A DNA stretch of 64,000 nt from an uncultured Acidobacteriaceae bacterium (GTDB lineage: Bacteria > Acidobacteriota > Terriglobia > Terriglobales > Acidobacteriaceae). The position numbers and the translations under genes were made by a program. Shown piece by piece: positions 3,066 to 13,867 of the stretch (within the stretch, counting starts at the first letter, position 1; each line of letters begins with the position of its first letter). The notes beneath the pieces are model-generated. The model had not been told where the DNA came from, did no database searches, and worked only from the letters and a program-made list of their open reading frames with translations. The DNA is taken from NCBI GenBank assembly GCA_963844905.1, contig CAWJQD010000003.1, positions 14,785-78,784 of the forward strand, given 5' to 3'.

Positions 3066-3243
3066 GCGTCCTGTCCACGGAAGGACCGTGCCCGGCATCG
3101 AATTTGAGTTACCAGGGGATCATTGCTGGATCGTCGGCGATCCGGAAGTAACTTTTTTTATAGCATCAGTCTGACCAACGACCGAATGCATTGAATTCAG
3201 GCTCGCCGGCCGCAAGCCCGCCCAGTGCTATACTCGCAGAGCC

Positions 3244-3945
3244 ATGCAAGTCTTTGCCATTCTTCCCGCTGCCGGCCTGGGCACCCGGATGGCCGGCCCG
3301 CAGCCCAAGCAGTTTCTGGCGCTTGATGGTGTCCCCATCCTCATTCATTCGCTGCGCGCCTTTGCCGCGGTGCCGCGCGTGACGGCCATCTATGTGGCCG
3401 TGCGCAAACCGGAGATGGAGCGCGTCGAGACCCAGGTCGCCGAGTACGGCTTCGCCGGACGCGTCCGCGTGGTCGAGGGCGGCGACAAGCGCCAGGAGTC
3501 GGTGGCCAACGCACTCAACGCGCTCCCTGCCCTGCCTGACGACATCGTTCTGGTGCACGACGCCGTGCGTCCGCTCATCGACGCAGCCACCATCGAGCGC
3601 ACCATCGATGCGGTGGCCGAATACGGCGCGGCCATCGTCGGCCTGCCCGCCGTGGACACCATCAAGCAGGTGGAGCGCACCGCTCACGGAGCGCTGATCA
3701 CCGCAACCATTCCGCGCGAGTTTATCGTGCTGGCGCAGACCCCGCAGGGCTTCCGCTTCGGGCTGCTCCAGCGCGCCTTTGCCGAGGCCACCGCGGACGG
3801 CTTTATAGGCACCGACGAAGCCTCGCTCCTGGAGCGCGCCGGCCTTCCCGTAGCCGTCGTTCACGGTTCTCAGGTTAATCTGAAGATTACACAGCCGGGC
3901 GACCTGGAACTGGCCGAGTTCTATCTGCGGAAACGCACGCTCTAG
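3244..3945 (+). CDS. ispD: 2-C-methyl-D-erythritol 4-phosphate cytidylyltransferase
   Basis: AAGLGTRM..PKQFL, RQESV, LVHDAVRP and QTPQGF motifs. Confidence 0.96.
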   Translation: MQVFAILPAAGLGTRMAGPQPKQFLALDGVPILIHSLRAFAAVPRVTAIYVAVRKPEMERVETQVAEYGFAGRVRVVEGGDKRQESVANALNALPALPDDIVLVHDAVRPLIDAATIERTIDAVAEYGAAIVGLPAVDTIKQVERTAHGALITATIPREFIVLAQTPQGFRFGLLQRAFAEATADGFIGTDEASLLERAGLPVAVVHGSQVNLKITQPGDLELAEFYLRKRTL

Positions 3946-4016
3946 AGACGCCCCGATCAAACGGCAGAACAGCGACCGGGACGCCCGACCGTCAGGCACG
4001 GAGATCAAAGCGGATC

Positions 4017-4634
4017 ATGGACACACGCATCGGATTTGGCTATGACTCGCACGAATTCAAGTCCGGCGTGCCGCTGCGCCTCGGCGGCATGACGCTGGAC
4101 CATCCCGAAGGCCTGGCCGGCCACTCGGACGGCGACGTGCTGCTGCATGCCATCACCGACGCACTGCTGGGCGCCGTGGCCGCCGGCGACATCGGCAGTT
4201 TCTTCCCTCCCGGCGATCCGCGCTGGAAGGACGCCGATTCCGCCATCTTTCTCAATCTCGCGCTCGAAGAGCTGCAACACTCCGGCTACCGCATCGTCAA
4301 CATCGACACCACGCTGGTCCTTGCTGCGCCGAAGATTGCGCCCATCGCCGCCGAGATGTGCTCCCGGATTGCCGATCTCCTCGGCATCGGTATCGATCAA
4401 GTGAGCATCAAGGCCAAAACTCCCGAGGGCCTCAACCTGGATCGCGTGGCCCAGTGCCATGCCGTGGCCCTGGTGGAGCGCGTGCAGGAGCCGGAAGAGC
4501 TCAAAAGCATGAGCGAAGTCGTCGAGAGCCAGCGCCAGCTTGAGGACGTGGTCGACGACCTGCTCAGCTCTGTCCACGGCGTGCCCAAAAAGCGCATCAT
4601 CCAGCCCGTCTACGACACCGAGGACATCACCTAA
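4017..4634 (+). CDS. ispF: 2-C-methyl-D-erythritol 2,4-cyclodiphosphate synthase with acidic C-terminal extension
   Basis: RIGFGYDSH, GHSDGDVLLHAITDALLGA and GDIG motifs; follows ispD. Confidence 0.95.
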   Translation: MDTRIGFGYDSHEFKSGVPLRLGGMTLDHPEGLAGHSDGDVLLHAITDALLGAVAAGDIGSFFPPGDPRWKDADSAIFLNLALEELQHSGYRIVNIDTTLVLAAPKIAPIAAEMCSRIADLLGIGIDQVSIKAKTPEGLNLDRVAQCHAVALVERVQEPEELKSMSEVVESQRQLEDVVDDLLSSVHGVPKKRIIQPVYDTEDIT

Positions 4635-5061: not shown

Positions 5062-5119
5062 GCCTCGGAACGCGGTCCGCAAGCGAGCCGTGCTGTAGCA
5101 TCGTGAATAGAACTTGACG

Positions 5120-6613
5120 ATGTTCGACACGACTCCCTCCGCATCTCCGCGCGTCCGTTTTGCGCCCTCGCCCACCGGCTTCCTGCACGTGGGCAGCGCC
5201 CGCACCTTTATCTTCAATTGGCTCTATGCCCGCCATAACCACGGAACCATGGTGTTGCGTCTGGACGACACCGATGTCGAGCGCAACACCGAGGCCAGTC
5301 TCCGGTCCATCTTCGAGGGACTGCGCTGGCTGGGTCTCGGCTGGGACGAAGAGTACAAGCAATCCGAACGCCTCGCCCTGCACCGCCAACAGGCCGAAGC
5401 CGTCTTCTTGAAGGGCCTTGCTTATCGCGACTTCACCCCCGCCCACTCGGGTGACGATATCCAGTCTTCCTCTTCGCAGGGCGCATGGTTGTGCAATCCA
5501 GGTATGCGCGATCTCTCCCGCGAGGAGAGCGACCGGCGCGCCGCCTCGGGTGAGCCGTTCGCTCTTCGCTATCGCGTGCCGCGCGGACACGGCCGGACTT
5601 TGCACTTCACCGATGGCGTTTATGGCGGGCAATCCAAGCTCGCCGACGAGGTGGAGGATTTCGCCCTGCTGCGGTCTGACGGATTGCCCACTTACCACCT
5701 CGCCTCGTGCGCCGACGACGCCGATCTCGGCATCAGCCACATCATCCGCGGCCAGGATCACCTCACCAACACCTTTAAGCACCTGCTCATCTTCGAGGCC
5801 CTCGGCGTCCCGCCGCCCCAGTTCGCACATCTTCCCCTGCTCGTCGCCCCCGATGGCGCCAAACTCTCCAAGCGCCTTCATGGCCCCGTGGTCAGCGTCA
5901 CCACCTATCGTGACGCCGGCTTCCTCCCCCAGGCCTTCGTCAACTTCCTCTGCCTCCTCGGCTGGTCGCCCAAAGACGACCGCCAGTTCCTTACTGTCGA
6001 CGAGCTTGTTGGCGCTTTCACTCTCGAAGGCGTCAACCGCGCCAACGCCGTAGTCAATTTTTCTGAAACAGCCTTGAGCTCTTCGGATTTCGCGCCATTC
6101 GATCCCAAAGCCGTCCATCTTAACGGCGAGCATATCCGCGCCCTGCCTATCGCCGAGCTCAGCCCCCTCCTCCAGCCCTTCTTTGAGCAGGCCGGTTTCC
6201 ATCCCTCGCCGGAAAAGCTCCTCGCCGTCGCCCCGCTCATCCGCGAGCGCATAAAACTCCTCAAGGACGCCGTCTCCGCCGCCGACTTCTTCTTTCTCGA
6301 TCAGCTCGCTCCCTACGATCCCGCCGAGCTGATTCCTAAAAATGGCGATGCCGCGCTCGCCCGCCGCGTGCTCCAACACGCCGAGCAGGTCCTCGCCACC
6401 ACCCCTTTCGATCACGATTCGTTGGACCAAGCCCTGCGCCAGGCCGCCGACCAGCTCGGCCTCAAGGCCGGTCAAATGTTTCAGCCCATCCGCGTCGCCG
6501 TGTGCGGACGCAAGAACGCGCCGCCGCTCTTTGAAACCATGGCCGTCCTCGGCCGCGACGTTTGCCTCGCCCGCATCCGCCAGGCCGAAGAAAGCCTGCA
6601 ATCGCTCGGTTGA
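5120..6613 (+). CDS. gltX: Glutamate--tRNA ligase
   Basis: [19 protein letters not shown] (HIGH), [13 protein letters not shown] (KMSKS) and an anticodon-binding C-terminus. Confidence 0.95.
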
Positions 6614-6671
6614 CTACAGAACCATCCGTACACCGGGCGCGGCGAGCGGCCCTCGGCTTGAGGCGCGGGCG

Positions 6672-6713
6672 GTTTCATCCTGGGCCCCAAAAGGCGGGGC
6701 CTGGGGCGCCCGC
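6672..6713 (-). repeat. REP-like palindrome, family A (GGG-N-GCCCCA / hairpin / TGGGAGAG type)
   Basis: Reverse complement gcgggcgccccaggccccgccttttggggcccaggatgaaac resembles the copies at 8066, 12072, 12244, 26813, 58608 and 61092. Confidence 0.6.
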
Positions 6714-6760
6714 ATCATTTGCCAACGATCACGATGCGTAAAATCGGCTAGAGGTCCCAG

Positions 6761-7483
6761 ATGAACGACGAATCATTCGTCTTGTACAAATTCAGAGCGA
6801 TCAATAAACACCTGATCGAATCTTTGGTTAGCCAAAGCCTATATTTCGCCAGGCCCGACGCCCTGAACGACCCGTTCGACTGCCAAATCGATCTAAAAGC
6901 TGCCCTCAAACGAGCCGAATCGTCCGCCGCTGGCGACCGAAAGAGTCTTCTCTCGTCATTTTTAGGCAATCAGAAATTTTTCGATAATTGGAAATCTGTA
7001 GTCGATAATTTCGGCGTGTGTTCGTTCTCAAGAGAGAATCGGGATACACTGCTATGGTCACGTTATGCCGACGAGCACAGGGGCGTGTGCCTAAAATACC
7101 AATTCCGAGAGTCCTATTTCTTAACTGACGAATTCCAGTTTGCTGCTGCGGGTGACGTTGAGTACCTCGATGAGCCACTGACGGAGTGGCTGAAAAACGC
7201 GCCTACAGATATGGAGGATTTCGTTATAGGACTTATTCATAAGTACCTTAAAACAAAAAGCCTTGCTTGGAAGTACGAAAAGGAAGCGAGAATAATTCGA
7301 CGCGAACATGGCGTTTTCAAATTCAGCGAGCCAGTCTTGAATCAGGTCTGTTTCGGCTTACAAACGCCGGACGACGACATTAAACTCATTAAAGATTTGG
7401 CTCGGACGTACGCCGGTTGCACTGGGTTCAGTCAGATGGTCCGCGACGAAACAGAATTCGGATTTACGGAGAAAGCGCTATAA
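6761..7483 (+). CDS. DUF2971 domain-containing protein (accessory, AT-richer than flanks)
   Basis: LYKFR, LNDPFDC, LWSRYADEHRGVCL and K..AWKYEKEAR match the DUF2971 signature pattern. Confidence 0.8.
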   Translation: MNDESFVLYKFRAINKHLIESLVSQSLYFARPDALNDPFDCQIDLKAALKRAESSAAGDRKSLLSSFLGNQKFFDNWKSVVDNFGVCSFSRENRDTLLWSRYADEHRGVCLKYQFRESYFLTDEFQFAAAGDVEYLDEPLTEWLKNAPTDMEDFVIGLIHKYLKTKSLAWKYEKEARIIRREHGVFKFSEPVLNQVCFGLQTPDDDIKLIKDLARTYAGCTGFSQMVRDETEFGFTEKAL

Positions 7484-7502
7484 GCACGAATAGGGTCGGC
7501 TG

Positions 7503-8063
7503 GTGGGCCAGCGCTTGGCCGACCAAGGCCGGCTGGGACGCCGGCCCCCAGCCAAGGGGAGATTCCAGGTGAGACTTTCCATTGAGCAACTTCTCTACGA
7601 CCCCTGCGAGGGTCTCAACGACGACCCAACACCGCCTACTCACGTTCGCGAATGCTATGAAATCCTCGCAGGCCCTATGGTAAATCTTCCAATTCAAATC
7701 CAATGGAACAACGAGAGAATGGCTAAGGCCAAAGAGATAGTAGCTAGAGCCGATGAGAGAATAGCTAAGGCCAATGGGAGAAGAGCTAACACCAGTGGGA
7801 AACTGTCTAAAACCAGCCAGAGGGTAGTCAAAGCCAATGAGAGGATAGCTGAGGCCAATAAGAGAATAGCTGAGGCCAAAGCTTACCTTTGCGACGCCGT
7901 CGAACGGTGTAAGGCCACATACGGCGAAGCTGATACTGTCGTCGCCTTTGAGGCTCTTTTGGAAAAGCTGGGCACTCCAGCCATGAGTTGCCGAGAAAGC
8001 GGGGATCCCCGTAAGTCCGCACTTTTGCCGGCGGGTGACCTAAGTGTGACCACCTTAAAATGA
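7503..8063 (+). CDS. Hypothetical coiled-coil protein with 8 tandem heptads (start uncertain)
   Basis: 21-bp tandem repeats at 7713-7880 encode ERMAKAK/EIVARAD/ERIAKAN/.../KRIAEAK in frame. Confidence 0.55.
   Translation: MGQRLADQGRLGRRPPAKGRFQVRLSIEQLLYDPCEGLNDDPTPPTHVRECYEILAGPMVNLPIQIQWNNERMAKAKEIVARADERIAKANGRRANTSGKLSKTSQRVVKANERIAEANKRIAEAKAYLCDAVERCKATYGEADTVVAFEALLEKLGTPAMSCRESGDPRKSALLPAGDLSVTTLK
7713..7880 (+). repeat. 8 x 21-bp imperfect tandem repeat (consensus gagagaatagctaaggccaat)
   Basis: Units are directly readable starting at 7713 and every 21 nt up to 7860. Confidence 0.9.
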
Positions 8064-8065
8064 AT

Positions 8066-8110
8066 GGGTGCCCAGGTCCGGATTTTTGGACCTGGGAGAG
8101 TATCAACCTC
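8066..8110 (+). repeat. REP-like palindrome, family A
   Basis: gggtg-cccaggtcc-ggattttt-ggacctggg-agagtatcaacctc, a perfect 9-bp stem. Confidence 0.75.
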
Positions 8111-8124
8111 CCGCGCGGCTGATA

Positions 8125-8221
8125 TTGAGCGCAGCCCTTCCGTGAAATAATTAACCATAATCATGAGCAACGGAAATTCGGAATGCACGGAAACCCGCAC
8201 CCCTTCCAACTTCCTCCGCGA
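8125..8221 (+). pseudogene. Relic 1 of the glnS 5' end and upstream region
   Basis: ATG 8163 gives MSNGNSECTETRTPSNFLRD. aacttcctccgcga is identical to glnS 10163-10176, and cagcccttccgtgaaa is shared with relic 2. Confidence 0.7.
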
Positions 8222-8277
8222 TGCAACGCGCCGCGACGCATATTTATGGCGTCTGGGGGTGGCGACGCATTTTCCTG

Positions 8278-8832
8278 CTAGTTCTTCGTTGCGCTTGGCT
8301 TAGCCTTTACAAACTTCGCTTCCCAGAAGGGTGTCCACGTATCCCCGTCGGTCGAGAATTCACCCTTAGACGTGCCACTCATGAAGTCTGGCGTGCATAC
8401 GAATGTCTCCCGGTACTGATAAATCATTCCTTTAATTTCCAACGGGCCCGCCCAAACAAACGTGTTTCCCGAGATCGTCAACGTTCCCGAGTATCTGCTC
8501 CCATCCGACTGGTACCAGTCCGTGTCGAACTCCTTGTTTACAGGGTCGTATGATACGATGCCGATCACGTGCAACTCTCCCGCGCCGATTTTTTCGCTCT
8601 CTTCCACCTGCAGGAAAAAACCGCCCAGGATCGTGTGTGCGTCCCAGACGCCTTTGACTTTACCTCCGCCGCCCAGCGGTCCGGGCTTGTACTCTCCTTC
8701 GTACGTCCAATGTCCGACCAGCCCATTCAATTCCTTCAGTTCGGAATCAGGCTTGTGAAAGCTTGTTTGGGCTCGTAGCGGGGCAACGAGGCAAATGACG
8801 ATCAGCGATAACAGAAGACTGGTTCGTTGCAT
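8278..8832 (-). CDS. DUF1579 family secreted protein
   Basis: ATG 8832 with GGAGG RBS, a signal peptide (MQRTSLLLSLIVICLVAPLRA), and LVGHW...LGGFFLQ...SYDPVNK. Confidence 0.75.
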   Translation of the reverse strand: MQRTSLLLSLIVICLVAPLRAQTSFHKPDSELKELNGLVGHWTYEGEYKPGPLGGGGKVKGVWDAHTILGGFFLQVEESEKIGAGELHVIGIVSYDPVNKEFDTDWYQSDGSRYSGTLTISGNTFVWAGPLEIKGMIYQYRETFVCTPDFMSGTSKGEFSTDGDTWTPFWEAKFVKAKPSATKN

Positions 8833-9023
8833 GGCCTTCCTCCTTAGCTGATACGGCGCGGCAAATACGTCAAAGTGTGCGCAACTCGACAAGCGGCAGC
8901 GGCTCTTCCGTGAGGCAAAAGGGATTATAGCGCCTCCACCCATGCTACTGCGTTGCAAGCCAAACTGGGACCCATGGCGGTATAGTGCAGGAACGAGCGG
9001 CCGCATTCATCCATTACCAGTTG

Positions 9024-9268
9024 TTGAGCGCAGCTGCTCGGTTAAGCACAGCCCTTCCGTGAAAGAATATGGAAAAAGGCAGTTATGGCAACCCCAAATC
9101 CGGAAAGCCCGGACGTTCGCGCTATCGACGCTCGCATTCCCTCCAACAACTTCCTCCGCGACGTGATCGCCGAGGATGCGCACACCAGAAAGTTCCGCGA
9201 CGCCCAAATCCAGACGCGCTTTCCACCCGAGCACAACAGCCATCGTCATGCCAGGGCAAGATCATCGA
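9024..9268 (+). pseudogene. Relic 2 of the glnS 5' end and upstream region
   Basis: ATG 9085 gives ...[33 protein letters not shown], against gln[34 protein letters not shown]. The HIGH motif region is deleted or degraded. Confidence 0.9.
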
Positions 9269-9324
9269 AAAGTAGGAAATGGAGACAACTCCTCTTATCT
9301 CCCTCGAAGCCCTATGATTAGGTC

Positions 9325-9999
9325 ATGAAGAGTCCGATGGCAAAAATGTGGCTCAAGCTTGTCGTAACTCTGGTTCTTATGGGATTCGCTTTGTTCCTTG
9401 CGGCGGGGACTTTCAATTATTGGCAGGCGTGGATTTTTCTCGGAGTAGGCGGCGTAGCAAACGTCCTTCTCAACCTCTCCATGATAAGAAACCCGGCGCT
9501 TCTTGAAAACAGGAGCAAGTGGGGGCCGGCGGCAGAGAAACGAACCACCCAAAAGATCATCCTTTTATGCGCGATGATCCCGGCCTTCGCCACGTTTATT
9601 ATTCCCGCGCTTGACCGTCGTTTCGGCTGGTCAAACGTGCCTTATTGGCTTTCCATAGCGGGCTTCCTCTTGATCCTGACCGGCCTGCGGATGGTATTCA
9701 TCGTGTTCAAAGCAAACTCCTTCGCCTCCGCAACCATCGAGATCGTCAATCATCAAAAGGTGATTTCTACTGGTCCGTACGCCATCGTGCGGAACCCGAT
9801 GTATGCCAGTGCGGTAGTGTACTTGATTGCGACACCTCTGGCGCTAGGTTCCTATTGGGGGCTCATTGCGGCCATCCTCACGGTCCTCGGCTTCGTTTGG
9901 CGGCTCTTCGACGAAGAAAAACTCCTTGCTCAAGATTTGCCCGGCTATACGGAATATTGTGCCAAAGTGCATTGGCACCTGATCCCGGGTGTTTTCTGA
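9325..9999 (+). CDS. Isoprenylcysteine carboxylmethyltransferase (ICMT/PEMT) family membrane protein
   Basis: Multiple TM helices plus HQKVISTGPYAIVRNPMY and EE..L...LPGYTEY motifs. Confidence 0.88.
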   Translation: MKSPMAKMWLKLVVTLVLMGFALFLAAGTFNYWQAWIFLGVGGVANVLLNLSMIRNPALLENRSKWGPAAEKRTTQKIILLCAMIPAFATFIIPALDRRFGWSNVPYWLSIAGFLLILTGLRMVFIVFKANSFASATIEIVNHQKVISTGPYAIVRNPMYASAVVYLIATPLALGSYWGLIAAILTVLGFVWRLFDEEKLLAQDLPGYTEYCAKVHWHLIPGVF

Positions 10000-10117
10000 C
10001 GTTTGGATTCGGTTCGGATCCTGAATCGAACACACGCCCTCACGTTAAAAAATCCGTTTGATTATCTCAATAATTTGCGAACACAAAGCTGCGGCAGTTG
10101 AGTTAGGAATCGCACCA

Positions 10118-11824
10118 ATGACCAAGACGAACTCGGAAAGTCAGGGCAATCTTACTCACACGAACTTCCTCCGCGACATCATCGCCGAGGATGTCCGCAC
10201 CAAAAAGTTCCGCGACGCCCAAATCCAGACCCGCTTTCCTCCCGAGCCCAACGGCTACCTCCACATCGGCCACGCCAAGGCCATTTGCATCGACTTCGGC
10301 CTCGCCGACGAGTTCGGCGGCAAGACCAACCTGCGCTTCGACGACACCAATCCCGAGAAGGAAGAGACGGAGTACGTCGAATCGATCATGGCCGACGTGC
10401 GCTGGCTGGGCTTCGATTGGGACCGCCTCTGCTACGCCTCCGACTACTTTGGCCAGCTCTACGAGTGGGCTTTGCAGCTCATCAAAGCCGGCAAGGCCTA
10501 CGTCGACGACCTCAGTGCCGACGAGATTCGCCAGCACCGCGGCACGCTCACCGAGCCCGGACGGGACAGCTCCTTTCGCAACCGGTCAGTCGAAGAGAAT
10601 CTTGACCTGTTTACCCGCATGAAGCAGGGCGAGTTCCCCGACGGCAGCCGCGTCCTCCGCGCCAAAATCGACATGGCCTCGCCCAACCTCAACATGCGCG
10701 ATCCCGTGATGTACCGCATCCTGCATGCGACGCACCATCGCACCGGCGACGAGTGGTGCATCTACCCCATGTACGACTACGCCCACGGCCAGTCCGACTC
10801 CATCGAGCAAGTCACCCACTCCATGTGCACGCTCGAATTCGCCGACCACCAGCCCCTCTACAAGTGGTATATTGCCCAGCTCGGAATCTTTCCCTCCGAG
10901 CAAATCGAATTCGACCGCCTCAACCTCACCTACACCATTCTCTCTAAACGGAAGCTACTGCAGCTGGTGAACGAAAAGCATGTGAACGGCTGGGACGATC
11001 CGCGCATGCCCACCCTCTCCGGCATTCGCCGCCGCGGCTTTACCCCCGAGGCCATCCGCGCCTTCTGCGCGCAGATCGGCGCCTCGCGCACAAATGGGGT
11101 CACGGATATCGAGATGCTCGAGCACTTCCAGCGCGACGACCTCAACCGCCGCTCTTCCCGCGCCATGGCCGTCCTGCACCCCCTCAAGCTAGTCATCGAC
11201 AACTACCCCGAGGGCAAAGAGGAATCTGTGGAAGTGGCCAACAACCCCGAAGACCCCTCCGCTGGAACGCGCCAGGTGCCCTTTTCCCGCGAGCTCTACA
11301 TCGAGCAGGATGATTTCCGCGAGACTCCTCCGCCCAAGTACTACCGCCTCTCTCCCGGCAAGGAGGTCCGCCTTCGCAACGCCTACTTCGTCACCGCCCA
11401 GCGCGTGGTCAAAGACGCGGCCGGCAACATCGTCGAAGTCCACTGTACCTATGATCCGGCCAGCCGCGGCGGCAACTCGCCCGACGGCCGCAAGGTGAAG
11501 TCCACCATGCACTGGGTCTCGATCTCCCACGCCATCTCCGCCGAAATCCGTCTCTACGACAAGCTCTTCTTGAAGGCCGATCCATACGACATAGCGGAAG
11601 GCGAGGACGTCCTCTCGAATCTCAACCCCAACTCCCTCGAGATCCTCCGGGGCGCAAAGCTTGAGCCCTCTCTCGCCGGCGCCAAACCCGGCGACCGCTT
11701 CCAGTTCGAGCGGGTCGGCTACTTCTGCCTCGATCCCGACTCGGCTCCGGGCAAGCTGGTGTTCAACCGGACGCTGCCGCTGAAAGACACTTGGGCGAAG
11801 ATCGAGAAGAAGGCGGGCGCGTAG
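10118..11824 (+). CDS. glnS: Glutamine--tRNA ligase
   Basis: [39 protein letters not shown] and FQFERVGYF; ATG at 10118. Confidence 0.97.
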
Positions 11825-11858
11825 GGTATACTTGCTCCGAATTTCGAGGACTGACCAA

Positions 11859-12041
11859 ATGGCTGATCAAATCAAAGCGGGCGATGTCGTTGTCCTGAAG
11901 TCTGGCGGACCAGATATGACTGTCAAATGGGTTAACGGATCAGAATGTTACTGCGAGTGGTTCGACGGGAAAAAAGTAATAGGAGGGTCCTTCGATACCA
12001 TTCAACTTCGCTCAAATGAAGAAAGTCCAAGGGATCGCTGA
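11859..12041 (+). CDS. YodC/DUF2158 family small protein
   Basis: IKAGDVVVLKSGGPDMTV...CEWFDG pattern; GAGG RBS before ATG 11859. Confidence 0.8.
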   Translation: MADQIKAGDVVVLKSGGPDMTVKWVNGSECYCEWFDGKKVIGGSFDTIQLRSNEESPRDR

Positions 12042-12071
12042 GGCATGCGGTCCAATTCTCAGAGGCGCCCG

Positions 12072-12126
12072 CGTGCCCCATCTTTCGCGCGTTTTTTTGC
12101 ACGAAGGGGTGGGAGAGCAAGGACCT
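12072..12126 (+). repeat. REP-like palindrome, family A
   Basis: cgtgccccatctttcgcgcgtttttttgcacgaaggggtgggagagcaagg. Confidence 0.7.
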
Positions 12127-12149
12127 AGACGACTGTGCCTTCGTCAGGC

Positions 12150-12220
12150 CCGGCACCCTCGCCTTCAACCGCACCCTCCCCCTCAAAGACACCTCGGCAG
12201 GGATTTAGAAGAAGGCGGGC
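12150..12220 (+). pseudogene. Relic of the glnS 3' end
   Basis: Translates [23 protein letters not shown], against the glnS C-terminus [24 protein letters not shown] (11746-11818). Confidence 0.88.
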
Positions 12221-12243
12221 AGCTGCTCAGCGGCTGGTTTACG

Positions 12244-12287
12244 TTTGTGCTCTCTCGCGTCTCAAGGCTGGGACGCTGGGCCACCCG
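12244..12287 (-). repeat. REP-like palindrome, family A (inverted relative to the 12072 copy)
   Basis: Reverse complement gggtggcccagcgtcccagccttgagacgcgagagagcacaaac shares both flanks with the other copies. Confidence 0.6.
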
Positions 12288-12331
12288 GCGTTGGGCTCGG
12301 AATGCACTGCGGGTCCGTCAGGAGCAATTCG

Positions 12332-13414
12332 GTGGAACTTTGCGTTTTTAAATTCAACCATGTAATTCACTGGAAGCTCTCCCCATCGGACCCGTTGCTT
12401 TACGACATTCAACCATACCCAGGGGTTCGGCTCGTTGCACCGCTGCTCTTCCCTGGCATCGAAGGTCTGATGGACGCCAAGCGAGCCGACGCAGAAGGCC
12501 TCAATTCCGAAAGCTATATTGGGCCCTTATGCCTGATCGAGACTGACGGGATTGCGTTCTCCATAGATGACGCACATGTCGCCCAGTACAAGCCCAAAGA
12601 CGTCGCTCGGTTTGCGTGCTTTAGATCCGACAGTCCCCCGCTGGATGCCGTCCTCACTCTTCTTCTAAATGCCCTAAGACATTTCAGCAAACAGGCGGAC
12701 TTGCCAACGAGCCCCGACGACGTCAACATTTGGGAATGGCTGAACCCGCCCGAGATGCCGACTATCGGAGCCCCACGCTCGAGCAAACTGATTCGGGCCG
12801 TTGCCAAATCAATTGTAGAAACAGCTATCACAAGAAAACACATTGAATCTGCGTGCAGCTGCGGCTCGGACTTCAGCGCTCCTATCTTCGACACACTAAT
12901 GCTCGACGCTATCAGCGCCCACGCTTCGCACGACTACCGAAAATCGATTCTGTACTCGGCAATTGCCGTAGAATCGGCGGCCTCGATTGTGTTGGAGGAC
13001 CAATTTGAGAAACACGTGCAAATGTCCGACTCGCCAAATTGGCGTGTAGTTGAAATCCCGCAATCGGGAGGAAAGGTAGTCCGGAAAGACCCCATCTGGT
13101 CCTACCTAAGAAGACGGGAAGACGCCAACGCGCTCCTGCATGAGGGTGCCCTCTACGTTTTAGGACGTTCGCTGATGCTCGAAAACGATCCCCTATACCA
13201 ACTCATGGAGCGTCTGAGGTCGACTCGAAACAAAATCGTTCATCTTGGCGAGCCGCCTGAGCAGAACCCAAGCCAATATTTGTCAATTGACCAACAGGGC
13301 TCTTCGGACGCTCTAAATTGCGCGAATGAAGTGCTCAACTGGTTAGGCGTGGGCAACGAATACAAGCTTCATGAAAGCGGGCTGGTCAATGTCTCAAATG
13401 CTCCAACAGAATAG
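12332..13414 (+). CDS. Hypothetical protein with a C-terminal HEPN-like Rx4H motif
   Basis: GTG 12332 follows AGGAG; SAIAVESAA helix and RNKIVH at 13226-13243; AT-richer than the host genes. Confidence 0.65.
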   Translation: MELCVFKFNHVIHWKLSPSDPLLYDIQPYPGVRLVAPLLFPGIEGLMDAKRADAEGLNSESYIGPLCLIETDGIAFSIDDAHVAQYKPKDVARFACFRSDSPPLDAVLTLLLNALRHFSKQADLPTSPDDVNIWEWLNPPEMPTIGAPRSSKLIRAVAKSIVETAITRKHIESACSCGSDFSAPIFDTLMLDAISAHASHDYRKSILYSAIAVESAASIVLEDQFEKHVQMSDSPNWRVVEIPQSGGKVVRKDPIWSYLRRREDANALLHEGALYVLGRSLMLENDPLYQLMERLRSTRNKIVHLGEPPEQNPSQYLSIDQQGSSDALNCANEVLNWLGVGNEYKLHESGLVNVSNAPTE

Positions 13415-13474
13415 AAGTCCAGTCGGCTTCCCCAGGCCTCGCTTCTGAGCAAGGGGATCTCCGCACACTCCCGC

Positions 13475-13867
13475 TTACGGAATCAGATACGCCCCCGGAA
13501 TCCCCTCGTCCAGCGTCGCCAGAACCGCTCCATTCGCGCTTGCCAGTTGCACGAGATGGCCGTCCGTGGTCTGCGCCGGGCTTTTTGCCCACTTCGGCAA
13601 GAATGAAATGTCATTCCCGTCGTTTATGAATTCGAGCGGGAACTCTTTCCACGCCTTCAGTTCCTGCAATAGGGATTTTGCGTGTGCCACGTCCATGCCG
13701 TAGGTTCGAACATTCCCAAGCACGCGAACGAATCCAAGCTCGGTGATAGAACATGTCAGGAAGCGATCGCCCTTTCGGGATCGAATCCAGGCGCCAACCC
13801 GATCGTGGAAATCATGCTGCCTGAATCCATAGGCGATGAGCGCGTTGACGTCCAGAAGGTACCTCAT
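13475..13867 (-). CDS. vapC: PIN domain (VapC) toxin
   Basis: YLLDVNALIA, ITELGFVR, TTDGHL and LATLDEG provide the acidic PIN residues. Confidence 0.9.
   Translation of the reverse strand: MRYLLDVNALIAYGFRQHDFHDRVGAWIRSRKGDRFLTCSITELGFVRVLGNVRTYGMDVAHAKSLLQELKAWKEFPLEFINDGNDISFLPKWAKSPAQTTDGHLVQLASANGAVLATLDEGIPGAYLIP

Follow-up and report, generated by a model that had tools for sequence, protein, structure and literature searches.

Displaced glnS and gltX ends at a variable junction of two synthetase genes in an uncultured Acidobacteriaceae bacterium

How does an essential synthetase gene come to be flanked by cut-off copies of its own ends? The question is raised by a stretch of 64,000 nucleotides from an uncultured Acidobacteriaceae bacterium (assembly GCA_963844905.1, contig CAWJQD010000003.1, positions 14,785 to 78,784), here called the window. 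Between its genes for glutamyl-tRNA synthetase (gltX) and glutaminyl-tRNA synthetase (glnS) lie several cargo genes and two truncated glnS 5' ends, termed relic 1 and relic 2. A truncated glnS 3' end follows the live gene, and all three displaced ends keep its orientation. A preliminary description of this DNA had taken the upstream part for an age-ordered, cassette-like array. The analysis presented here leads to another answer: the scars that flank glnS are a new example of known genome dynamics, a fairly ordinary footprint of exchange at a hotspot, and not a new cassette system. The mechanism that we favour, with a probability of roughly 0.6, is homology-facilitated illegitimate recombination (HFIR) that joined alternative hotspot alleles, with gene conversion at a later stage. 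Coordinates refer to the whole window, L-numbers denote fetched loci or contigs of relatives, and X-numbers denote short-read runs. The parts of the array that the argument needs are listed here.

5114..6613, + strand: gltX, glutamyl-tRNA synthetase, left core border of the islet (Pfam tRNA-synt_1c and Anticodon_2).
7503..8063, + strand: p186, cargo gene for 186 aa with heptad repeats (no Pfam match; 78% amino acid identity to L001).
8115..8221, + strand: relic 1, native glnS leader (8115-8162) plus codons 1-20 (8163-8221); nhmmer E=1.6e-16, colinear with L001 to codon 20.
8217..8222: joint J1, glnS codon 19-20 against the 3' flank of the DUF1579 segment, microhomology CGCGA.
8222..8952, - strand: DUF1579 cargo segment, gene at 8278-8832 on the minus strand (Pfam PF07617).
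9047..9239, + strand: relic 2, native-type glnS leader (9047-9084) plus codons 1-51 (9085-9239); nhmmer E=1.2e-37.
9233..9240: joint J2, glnS codon 50-51 (CCCGAGC) against ICMT-type spacer bases just past a gltX stop (GAGCACAAC); GAGC, 10/12 bases match.
9240..9324, + strand: native gltX-ICMT spacer, 73-76% identical to the spacers of L083, L084, L087, L088 and L089.
9325..9999, + strand: membrane methyltransferase of the ICMT/PEMT family (Pfam PF04191, PF04140).
10000..10117, + strand: ICMT-type leader of the live glnS, without the native leader motif, 78-81% identical to L004, L088 and L089.
10118..11824, + strand: intact glnS, glutaminyl-tRNA synthetase, 568 aa with all three Pfam domains.
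12152..12236, + strand: glnS 3' relic (12152-12220, in-frame TAG) and terminator-like hairpin (12220-12236); nhmmer E=1.7e-11.

One nhmmer profile was built from the leader and 5' end of glnS in nine relatives, and a second from the glnS 3' end. Profile and alignment agree with the preliminary description that two decayed glnS starts lie upstream of the intact gene on the same strand. Relic 2 is readily seen, as 9148-9240 matches glnS 10163-10255 at 89% identity over 93 nt without gaps, and the 5' profile covers 9028-9259. Relic 1 shares an exact block of 15 nt with glnS and nothing more; the profile matches it at 8115-8222 because the native glnS leader (CAGCCCTTCCGTGAAAnAAT) and codons 1-20 are retained. 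The motif CAGCCCTTCCGTGAAAnAAT stands upstream of the ATG in both relics, and its position ahead of glnS in many relatives marks it as a native leader or promoter region. The residues N-terminal to NFLRD differ in all three copies, as had been described. The 3' relic was absent from the earlier list and was found with the 3' profile; tblastn gave 76% over 25 aa. Among species generally, the 12-30 residues before NFLRD are hypervariable in length and sequence, and the glnS start of L083, L084, L091, L006 and L248 contains an apparent short in-frame duplication (ATGACCGAAGCAAATGCAGCC then ATGAGCCAATCGAATCCGGAA).

Relic 2 had been extended over 9241-9268 as a decayed HIGH region. The similarity of these bases to glnS is not significant (60/500 shuffles reached the score), and they are better read as native spacer between gltX and ICMT, with homology to the corresponding spacers in L084, L087, L088 and L089. 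Relic 2 therefore ends at about codon 51 (~9239). The idea that the spacer is itself an old HIGH-region relic was likewise rejected: the score was reached by 7/500 shuffles for L084 and at the rate just given for the window, other spacers were not significant, no profile match was obtained, and the spacer start resembles the native leader start instead. Two further candidates were discarded. A gltX 3' relic upstream of leader 2 was not significant, a 13-nt terminus copy being all that shows, and a third leader-like motif at 8899-8924 is part of the native DUF1579 upstream region, also present in L150 and L151.

The array was checked for misassembly over long spans and is confirmed by independent assemblies. 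It recurs at 99.99% identity in a 684-kb ENA contig (L081/L082), and a single 2845-nt short-read contig of run X2 spans 6526-9370 with zero mismatches. Contigs of X1, X4 and X5 cover the remaining junctions and the segment with the 3' relic. One X4 contig has a loose end at 8207 and represents a co-occurring strain with the same relic 1/DUF1579 joint and a different pre-NFLRD sequence (…LLDARTPS vs …CTETRTPS), so the relic region is polymorphic.

The origin of relic 1 is suggested by L001. Positions 7503-8221, comprising p186, the hairpin behind it, the leader and glnS codons 1-20, are colinear with L001 17-734 at 83.75% over 720 nt. In L001, p186 stands directly upstream of an intact glnS; the alignment stops exactly at the end of relic 1, and the L001 gene runs on. 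Judged by this colinearity, relic 1 is the cut-off end of a p186-glnS arrangement that L001 keeps whole. Relatives with single units had been predicted, and they exist: L001 has p186-leader-glnS, and ICMT-leader-glnS occurs in eleven species, L004 among them. Colinear foreign alleles of this kind also bear out the earlier view that the displaced and truncated glnS ends were made by recombination and not by whole-gene tandem duplication.

The DUF1579 segment that follows relic 1 was believed to have arrived together with a glnS 5' end, which is not what its relatives show. From 8217/8220 to 8929/8952 it has 85% nucleotide identity to metagenome contigs L149-L151, its closest relatives, whose contexts contain neither gltX nor glnS, and this homology starts exactly at J1. 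Among the 85 relatives found, 5 of them in species genomes and 80 in metagenome contigs, not one has DUF1579 next to glnS or gltX. With L150 as a proxy parent, the homologous flank begins ...att|CGCGATTCAG (also given as ...att|CGCGATTCAGTGCGCC), and the joint, TTCCTCCGCGA|TGCAACG, falls within the CGCGA microhomology against L150 (5 nt) and within GA only against L149 (2 nt). In acidobacterial metagenome contigs (L145, L164, L166, L175 and others) DUF1579 genes usually form tandem arrays of paralogues with up to six copies, and with its single copy the window departs from this usual context.

On the other side of relic 2, the order gltX-spacer-ICMT-leader-glnS occurs in eleven species-level genomes (L004, L083-L091, L103), and the 85-90 nt ahead of ICMT in the window are homologous to the gltX-ICMT spacers of that arrangement. 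In L084, GCACAACAGCTATCG opens the spacer right past the gltX stop; in the window this sequence stands behind glnS codon 51 (CCACCCGA|GCACAACAGCCATCG). Joint J2 lies within GAGC (4 nt), and glnS codons 50-53 match the boundary of gltX stop and spacer at 10/12 bases (L084 and L088-L091 compared). About 20 nt resembling the start of a spacer or leader remain 3' of the real gltX stop.

The two joints thus show what is expected of HFIR, an illegitimate joint at short microhomology between unrelated sequences. They lie at different glnS codons (20 and 51), have unrelated partners, use 2-5 nt (J1) and 4 nt (J2) of microhomology and share no common core of an attachment (att) site, which is the signature of illegitimate joints. 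Crossovers in the conserved NFLRD..TRFPPE block, as first proposed, do not account for relics that end at CGCGA (codon 19-20) and GAGC (codon 50-51). Nor can the array be read as an order of ages with ICMT as its newest member: gltX-ICMT-glnS is widespread, in the eleven genomes named, and relic 2 abuts the native ICMT spacer, so ICMT is not demonstrably the newest cargo.

A repeat search of the window found no boundary repeat or hairpin family common to the units. Elements resembling attC or repetitive extragenic palindromic (REP) sequences were considered as boundaries and rejected, since the CCCAGGTCC...GGACCTGGG hairpin is single in the window and GGCACGACT...AGTCGTGCC hairpins occur only in L003, L009 and L016. 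In L009 an IS200-like Y1 transposase gene (RAYT-like; 5364-5864) sits between gltX and glnS with these hairpins on either side (5278-5297 and 5901-5920); a single one stands upstream of glnS in L003 (176-195) and in L016 (5887-5906). No integrase, recombinase or transposase was found in the Pfam domains of called genes up to 8 kb on either side, or when the cargo proteins were scanned against Pfam. When glnS was compared with 13 relatives in a sliding window, no clean mosaic breakpoint emerged; the relatives are 80-92% identical, and conserved gltX and glnS flank the inserts. Breakpoint analysis and per-segment best matches were set aside, as relatives at this distance are too divergent to place homologous crossovers.

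The genomic setting is that of a hotspot, a concept reportedly treated by Oliveira et al. in 2017. In the window ispD and ispF lie upstream of gltX, and the synteny ispD-ispF-gltX-glnS is kept in relatives. Within it, the gltX-glnS interval is a hypervariable islet in Terracidiphilus relatives. The two genes are adjacent in L005, L006 and L008, and 0.9-3.7 kb of differing cargo separates them in other relatives: Gp49/HI1420-type HigBA pairs, a ParDE pair, an IS200-like Y1 transposase, membrane proteins, a dehydrogenase and a radical-SAM enzyme. As had been stated, the cargo varies between relatives and an integrase is absent nearby. The order of modules also varies. The DUF2971 module of the window (6736-7500) is 78.6% identical to L238, where it stands behind HigA, and its 47-nt upstream flank is found downstream of ICMT in L090. 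The interval behind glnS varies as well, with a glnS-vapC gap of 45 nt in L083 and 1-3 kb in other relatives. The remaining features of the islet and of the region behind glnS are given below.

6614..6633, + strand: remnant of the native leader/spacer start immediately 3' of the gltX stop, aligning with the spacer starts of L084, L088 and L089.
6761..7483, + strand: DUF2971 cargo gene (Pfam PF11185; match to PDC-S31, a PADLOC family of candidate defence proteins, E=3.8e-41).
8071-8096: hairpin 3' of p186, occurring once in the window.
9034..9046, + strand: 13-nt copy of the gltX terminus (CTGCTCGGTTAA) ahead of leader 2, read directly and from alignment with the gltX end; it is below the size for a statistical test and has no gltX 3' profile match.
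11826..13429: strain-variable segment starting at the glnS stop, with an unrelated 1668-nt segment in the sister contig.
11859..12041, + strand: DUF2158 small-protein cargo (Pfam PF09926).
12245..13414, + strand: unknown cargo open reading frame (ORF) p389, of 389 aa (308 aa if a later start is used), without a match in Pfam or PADLOC.
13475..13867, - strand: vapC, PIN toxin, right border of the downstream variable segment (Pfam PIN), adjoined by a MazE-type antitoxin gene.

Turnover at this place can be seen between strains. The sister contig L081 and the window are 99.99% and 99.95% identical in their flanks, and the middle cannot be aligned. From the first base past the glnS stop to 45 nt before vapC, L081 (9709-11376) carries an unrelated segment of 1668 nt in place of window positions 11826-13429, and over the 9.7 kb of upstream flank there is a single mismatch, 42 nt short of the glnS end. 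The joint 11825>13430 is present in runs X1 and X2, and the version of the window is confirmed by X4 contigs. This difference is a very recent cassette-like replacement.

A further part of the footprint is exchange between the scars and the live genes. The 93-nt block of relic 2 matches its own glnS at 83/93 positions, vs a maximum of 81/93 among 33 relatives. Relic 2 and the live gene also have in common a G>C change (Gly to Arg, in FRDAQIQ) that occurs in 0/33 relatives. In its leader and N-terminal codons relic 2 belongs to another type than the live glnS. This pattern is best explained by gene conversion, that is, exchange between relic 2 and the live gene; the expectation of a distinct donor for each end finds no support at relic 2, which is nearest to its own glnS and carries the private substitution.

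No further glnS 5' relic emerged when 90 species-level loci were scanned with the profiles, and there is hence no sign of a recurring glnS cassette system. The same scans revealed a displaced gltX 3' end in L083 and L088-L091, and a scan seeded with HigA added gltX-HigBA-gltX relic-(ICMT)-glnS arrangements in further species. At least 14 genomes hold an intact and a relic copy of gltX, with relics of about 105-150 nt (loci L083, e.g. 3193-3316, L088-L091, L230, L233-L235, L239, L243, L248, L254, L256 and L259). The relic stands directly behind a HigBA, ParDE or membrane-protein module, and across these cargo types it starts within about 13 nt of one position. Such clustering is most simply read as one old event followed by turnover of the cargo. 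The gltX relics are 71-99% identical to the intact gltX of their own genome, vs means of 66-80% to the relics of other genomes, and in most of 14 genomes the own intact gene is also nearer to the relic than the closest other relic. This signature of concerted evolution indicates, as far as sequence comparison can tell, ongoing gene conversion. The last 25 nt are unlike between relic and intact copy, as expected if the tail of the live gene came with the cargo.

The favoured mechanism builds on what could be shown, the anatomy of the array, its colinear relatives and the microhomologies, on the absence of an integrase, on replacement at strain level and on concerted evolution. We infer the remainder, namely the route of DNA uptake, a RecA-mediated anchor, and the order and direction of events. 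Related lineages hold different small modules at the gltX-glnS junction and just past glnS: pairs of toxin and antitoxin, a gene of candidate defence function, a methyltransferase, and ORFs of unknown role. DNA entering from one lineage would pair through the highly conserved ends of both essential synthetase genes; where the second crossover is non-homologous, a short microhomology of a few bases would seal the incoming DNA. Only products with one complete gltX and one complete glnS would survive; where the illegitimate joint fell inside the end of either gene, a truncated copy of 60-190 nt would be left as a scar. The array would then consist of three alternative junction alleles placed head to tail. 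Allele A (gltX-DUF2971-p186-leader-glnS) would be cut at codon 20 and followed by the DUF1579 segment, captured from elsewhere at the first joint; allele B (gltX end-leader-glnS) would be cut at codon 51; and allele C (spacer-ICMT-leader-glnS) would be intact. A mirror-image event across glnS would have produced the 3' relic, and the scars would later exchange sequence with the live gene through gene conversion. The presence of allele A in intact form in L001, and of allele C in 11 species, supports this joining of alleles. The structure could arise equally by addition of ICMT and a new glnS start as the last step, or by insertion of a block from an ICMT-less relative between gltX and a resident ICMT.

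Several points weigh against this mechanism. No donor genome close to identity turned up, and the events can therefore not be retraced nucleotide by nucleotide. The proxy parents for J1 are only 85% identical, with the microhomology changing from 5 nt (L150) to 2 nt (L149) with the choice of parent. This organism is not known to take up DNA by natural transformation or by any other route. All relics are short (<200 nt), and the clustering of gltX relic starts within about 13 nt for different cargo types is not predicted by purely random illegitimate joints; it needs a single ancient origin with cargo turnover, or recombinational loss of long relics. The gene trees of glnS and gltX are star-like, the presence of ICMT is patchy, and L259, the nearest flank relative, has no ICMT, which would allow either direction for the ICMT-side event. 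Neighbour-joining trees were tried as a means to polarise gain or loss of ICMT and were uninformative, with ICMT scattered over them.

Among the other explanations, serial displacement at the glnS 5' end, as proposed in the preliminary description, is unlikely. It holds that a unit of cargo and a glnS 5' end repeatedly recombined in NFLRD..TRFPPE, gave glnS a new start each time and brought ICMT last; in a variant, small circles looped out between relic and live gene could have been integrated by RecA. The topology fits, and the repeat spacings of 940 and 1015 nt would be the unit sizes. The lack of ICMT in L259 and the 90.4% identity of ICMT to L004, slightly above that of most flanking genes to any relative, are compatible with a late acquisition, and the 10/12 match between the ICMT spacer start and glnS codons 50-53 would be able to close a circle. 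However, the relics end at illegitimate joints without a common homologous crossover, DUF1579 is beside glnS in 0/85 relatives found, ICMT-glnS with gltX directly upstream is widespread, and no glnS 5' relic occurs in another genome among the 90 species loci. Deletion joints of 1015 or 940 nt are also absent from the read contigs, though such contigs drop rare variants. A bolder reading seems improbable to us, in which aminoacyl-tRNA synthetase (aaRS) gene ends would support an integrase-free cassette system, with small toxin-antitoxin or defence modules carrying 60-190 nt of an essential-gene terminus as a homology arm that travels with them. A circle of gene end and cargo would loop out when a relic recombines with the live end and could re-enter any relative by RecA alone, and gene conversion would keep the arm matched to its host. 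Its footprint would be seen in three features: gltX-HigBA-gltX relic arrangements in at least 14 species, the clustering of relic boundaries, and concerted evolution.

Decayed site-specific islands are quite improbable as a source of the array. Under this explanation tandem integrase elements would have entered at the 5' and 3' ends of glnS and the 3' end of gltX, each with a replacement end in attP, and later lost their integrases, leaving remnants like cis-mobilizable elements (CIME). A regenerated target with a displaced fragment is the classical signature of such elements (PMC4383910), and gltX relic boundaries clustered within about 13 nt for three cargo types would suit them. Against this, there is no integrase within 8 kb in the window, and the inspected hotspot cargo of relatives has none either, its sole recombinase-like gene being the Y1 transposase of L009; the two glnS 5' joints lie at different codons with different partners and no common core, and the units measure only 0.4-1 kb. 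It is very improbable that the glnS region was once duplicated in tandem within the lineage and later altered by deletions and insertions. Such a duplication would account for a conserved block of relic 2 that is nearest to its own glnS and shares its private substitution, but gene conversion, seen independently in the gltX relics, explains that substitution too. The leaders and N-terminal codons of the three copies are mutually unrelated, and each copy has its own matches: relic 1 in L001 over 720 nt, the live leader in L004, L088 and L089. Leaders matching different relatives are not what a duplication predicts, as its copies should be mutually closest with their leaders included, and in relatives the cargo varies. 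A contig chimeric between strains is almost certainly not the explanation: several related strains do co-occur in the same samples, but two assemblies contain the array, the mismatch-free 2845-nt contig runs across relic 1, DUF1579 and relic 2, and contigs from four runs cover the junctions.

The favoured mechanism, HFIR between hotspot alleles, is well described. It was established by de Vries & Wackernagel 2002, Prudhomme et al. 2002 and Meier & Wackernagel 2003, as reported in PMC5361080 and PMC2884548, and has been proposed as a main source of variable segments in bacterial genomes (PMC2884548). In these accounts one end is anchored in conserved sequence and the other is sealed at a microhomology of a few bases, and insertion needs no enzyme encoded by the element, all of which the present case would share. 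Experimental proof, in the same accounts, comes only from naturally transformable model species, whereas here the process is read from scars. The anchors at this locus are termini of essential aaRS genes, so that outcomes are filtered by selection for an intact gene.

The closest functional analogy is offered by the arrays at effector loci, that is, C-terminal displacement in Rhs, orphan cdiA-CT/cdiI modules of contact-dependent inhibition (CDI), and effector-immunity arrays of the type VI secretion system (T6SS) (PMC5361080). There, too, a conserved gene gains a new end and cargo, the old end is orphaned, and repetition builds an array without an integrase. HFIR has been proposed for these arrays, and the parallel with integrons lacking an integrase has already been drawn (PMC5361080). 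They differ in that their variable end is a functional toxin tip and their immunity genes are retained, which gives a selective reason for the array. At glnS the displaced ends are scraps of a housekeeping gene with no function, and the cargo has nothing to do with that gene. Relics stand at its 5' and at its 3' end, and the order of events need not be serial. A polymorphic end with an immunity gene is likewise lacking, since the cargo (DUF1579, ICMT, DUF2158) includes no toxin tip or immunity pair.

Islands inserted by integrases (Islander, PMC4383910; tycheposons, bioRxiv 10.1101/2020.12.28.424599) resemble the locus in the intact gene end beside the insert, in the displaced fragment at the far side and in tandem arrays of fragment and cargo. 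The glnS array, by contrast, has no integrase gene, no direct repeat of an att core at the unit ends and no common crossover position, and its units are 0.4-1 kb vs several kb. Integrons are no better match, as an integrase and a repeated hairpin bounding the units are absent; attC models were not run. Integration hotspots next to core genes are a further known class (e.g. Touchon et al. 2009, PMC2617782). Like them, the interval holds different accessory, defence or toxin-antitoxin genes in each relative, and exchange would proceed through recombination in the flanking core genes. Scars in the termini of the core genes and concerted evolution with the live gene are not standard there. What is peculiar to the present locus is the use of essential aaRS genes as anchors, the functionless ends, the occurrence of relics from the gltX 3' end as well as from either end of glnS, and the similarity kept by conversion. 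The claim that no such system had been described is thus superseded by the work on HFIR and on the Rhs, CDI and T6SS displacement arrays (PMC5361080, PMC2884548). Of the preliminary model the mechanism class has support (homology-anchored recombination, displaced ends and no integrase), and its crossover site, cargo pairing, age order and novelty are wrong or lack proof.

The locus is a clean natural example, from uncultured soil and peat Acidobacteria, of how accessory genes gather between essential ones in the absence of mobile-element machinery; they include pairs of toxin and antitoxin genes and a candidate gene for phage defence. The truncated gene ends are datable scars that record which alleles were joined, and could be used to screen genomes for homology-anchored illegitimate recombination. 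Two cautions follow from them. Gene conversion keeps a scar similar to the live gene, which matters for the dating of pseudogenes, and the displaced-end signature by which integrase islands are found can arise without an integrase.

Some minor observations concern the window at large. Self-BLAST of the 64 kb found no further gene-end relics and only two unrelated dispersed repeat pairs of 56-70 nt and 86-89% identity (63882-63951/27650-27719, inverted; 55214-55269/40444-40499, direct), both unrelated to glnS and without an Rfam family match. A scan of the window against Rfam gave no known RNA family, so the glnS leader is no described riboswitch or T-box. No relatives of the DUF2158 gene or of p389 were found in the fetched loci. 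The p186 gene contains at least six tandem repeats of 21 nt, each a heptad, at 7709-7879, with AKANERI-like units and no family match, and fragments of the gene lie between HigA and glnS in L242.

Other observations touch the flanks of glnS itself. A promoter-like site is present at 10045-10074, within the ICMT-type leader of the live gene. Relic 2 and the spacer together form an open 78-codon ORF (9085-9321), annotated as a gene by ENA, whose stop (9319-9321) is separated by 3 nt from the ICMT start at 9325; from this layout, displaced leader 2 may be the present driver of ICMT. L004 and L088 come from one metagenome-assembled genome (MAG), JBAVYF01, and represent two ICMT-glnS junction contigs with ICMT genes 90% and 75% identical to that of the window, either because the bin contains two strains or because ICMT is duplicated in tandem and the assembly broke there. 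In L052, an Ignavibacteriota MAG, about 190 nt of the glnS 3' end are directly duplicated at 90.7% identity immediately downstream of the gene (3867-4000 and 4168-4302).

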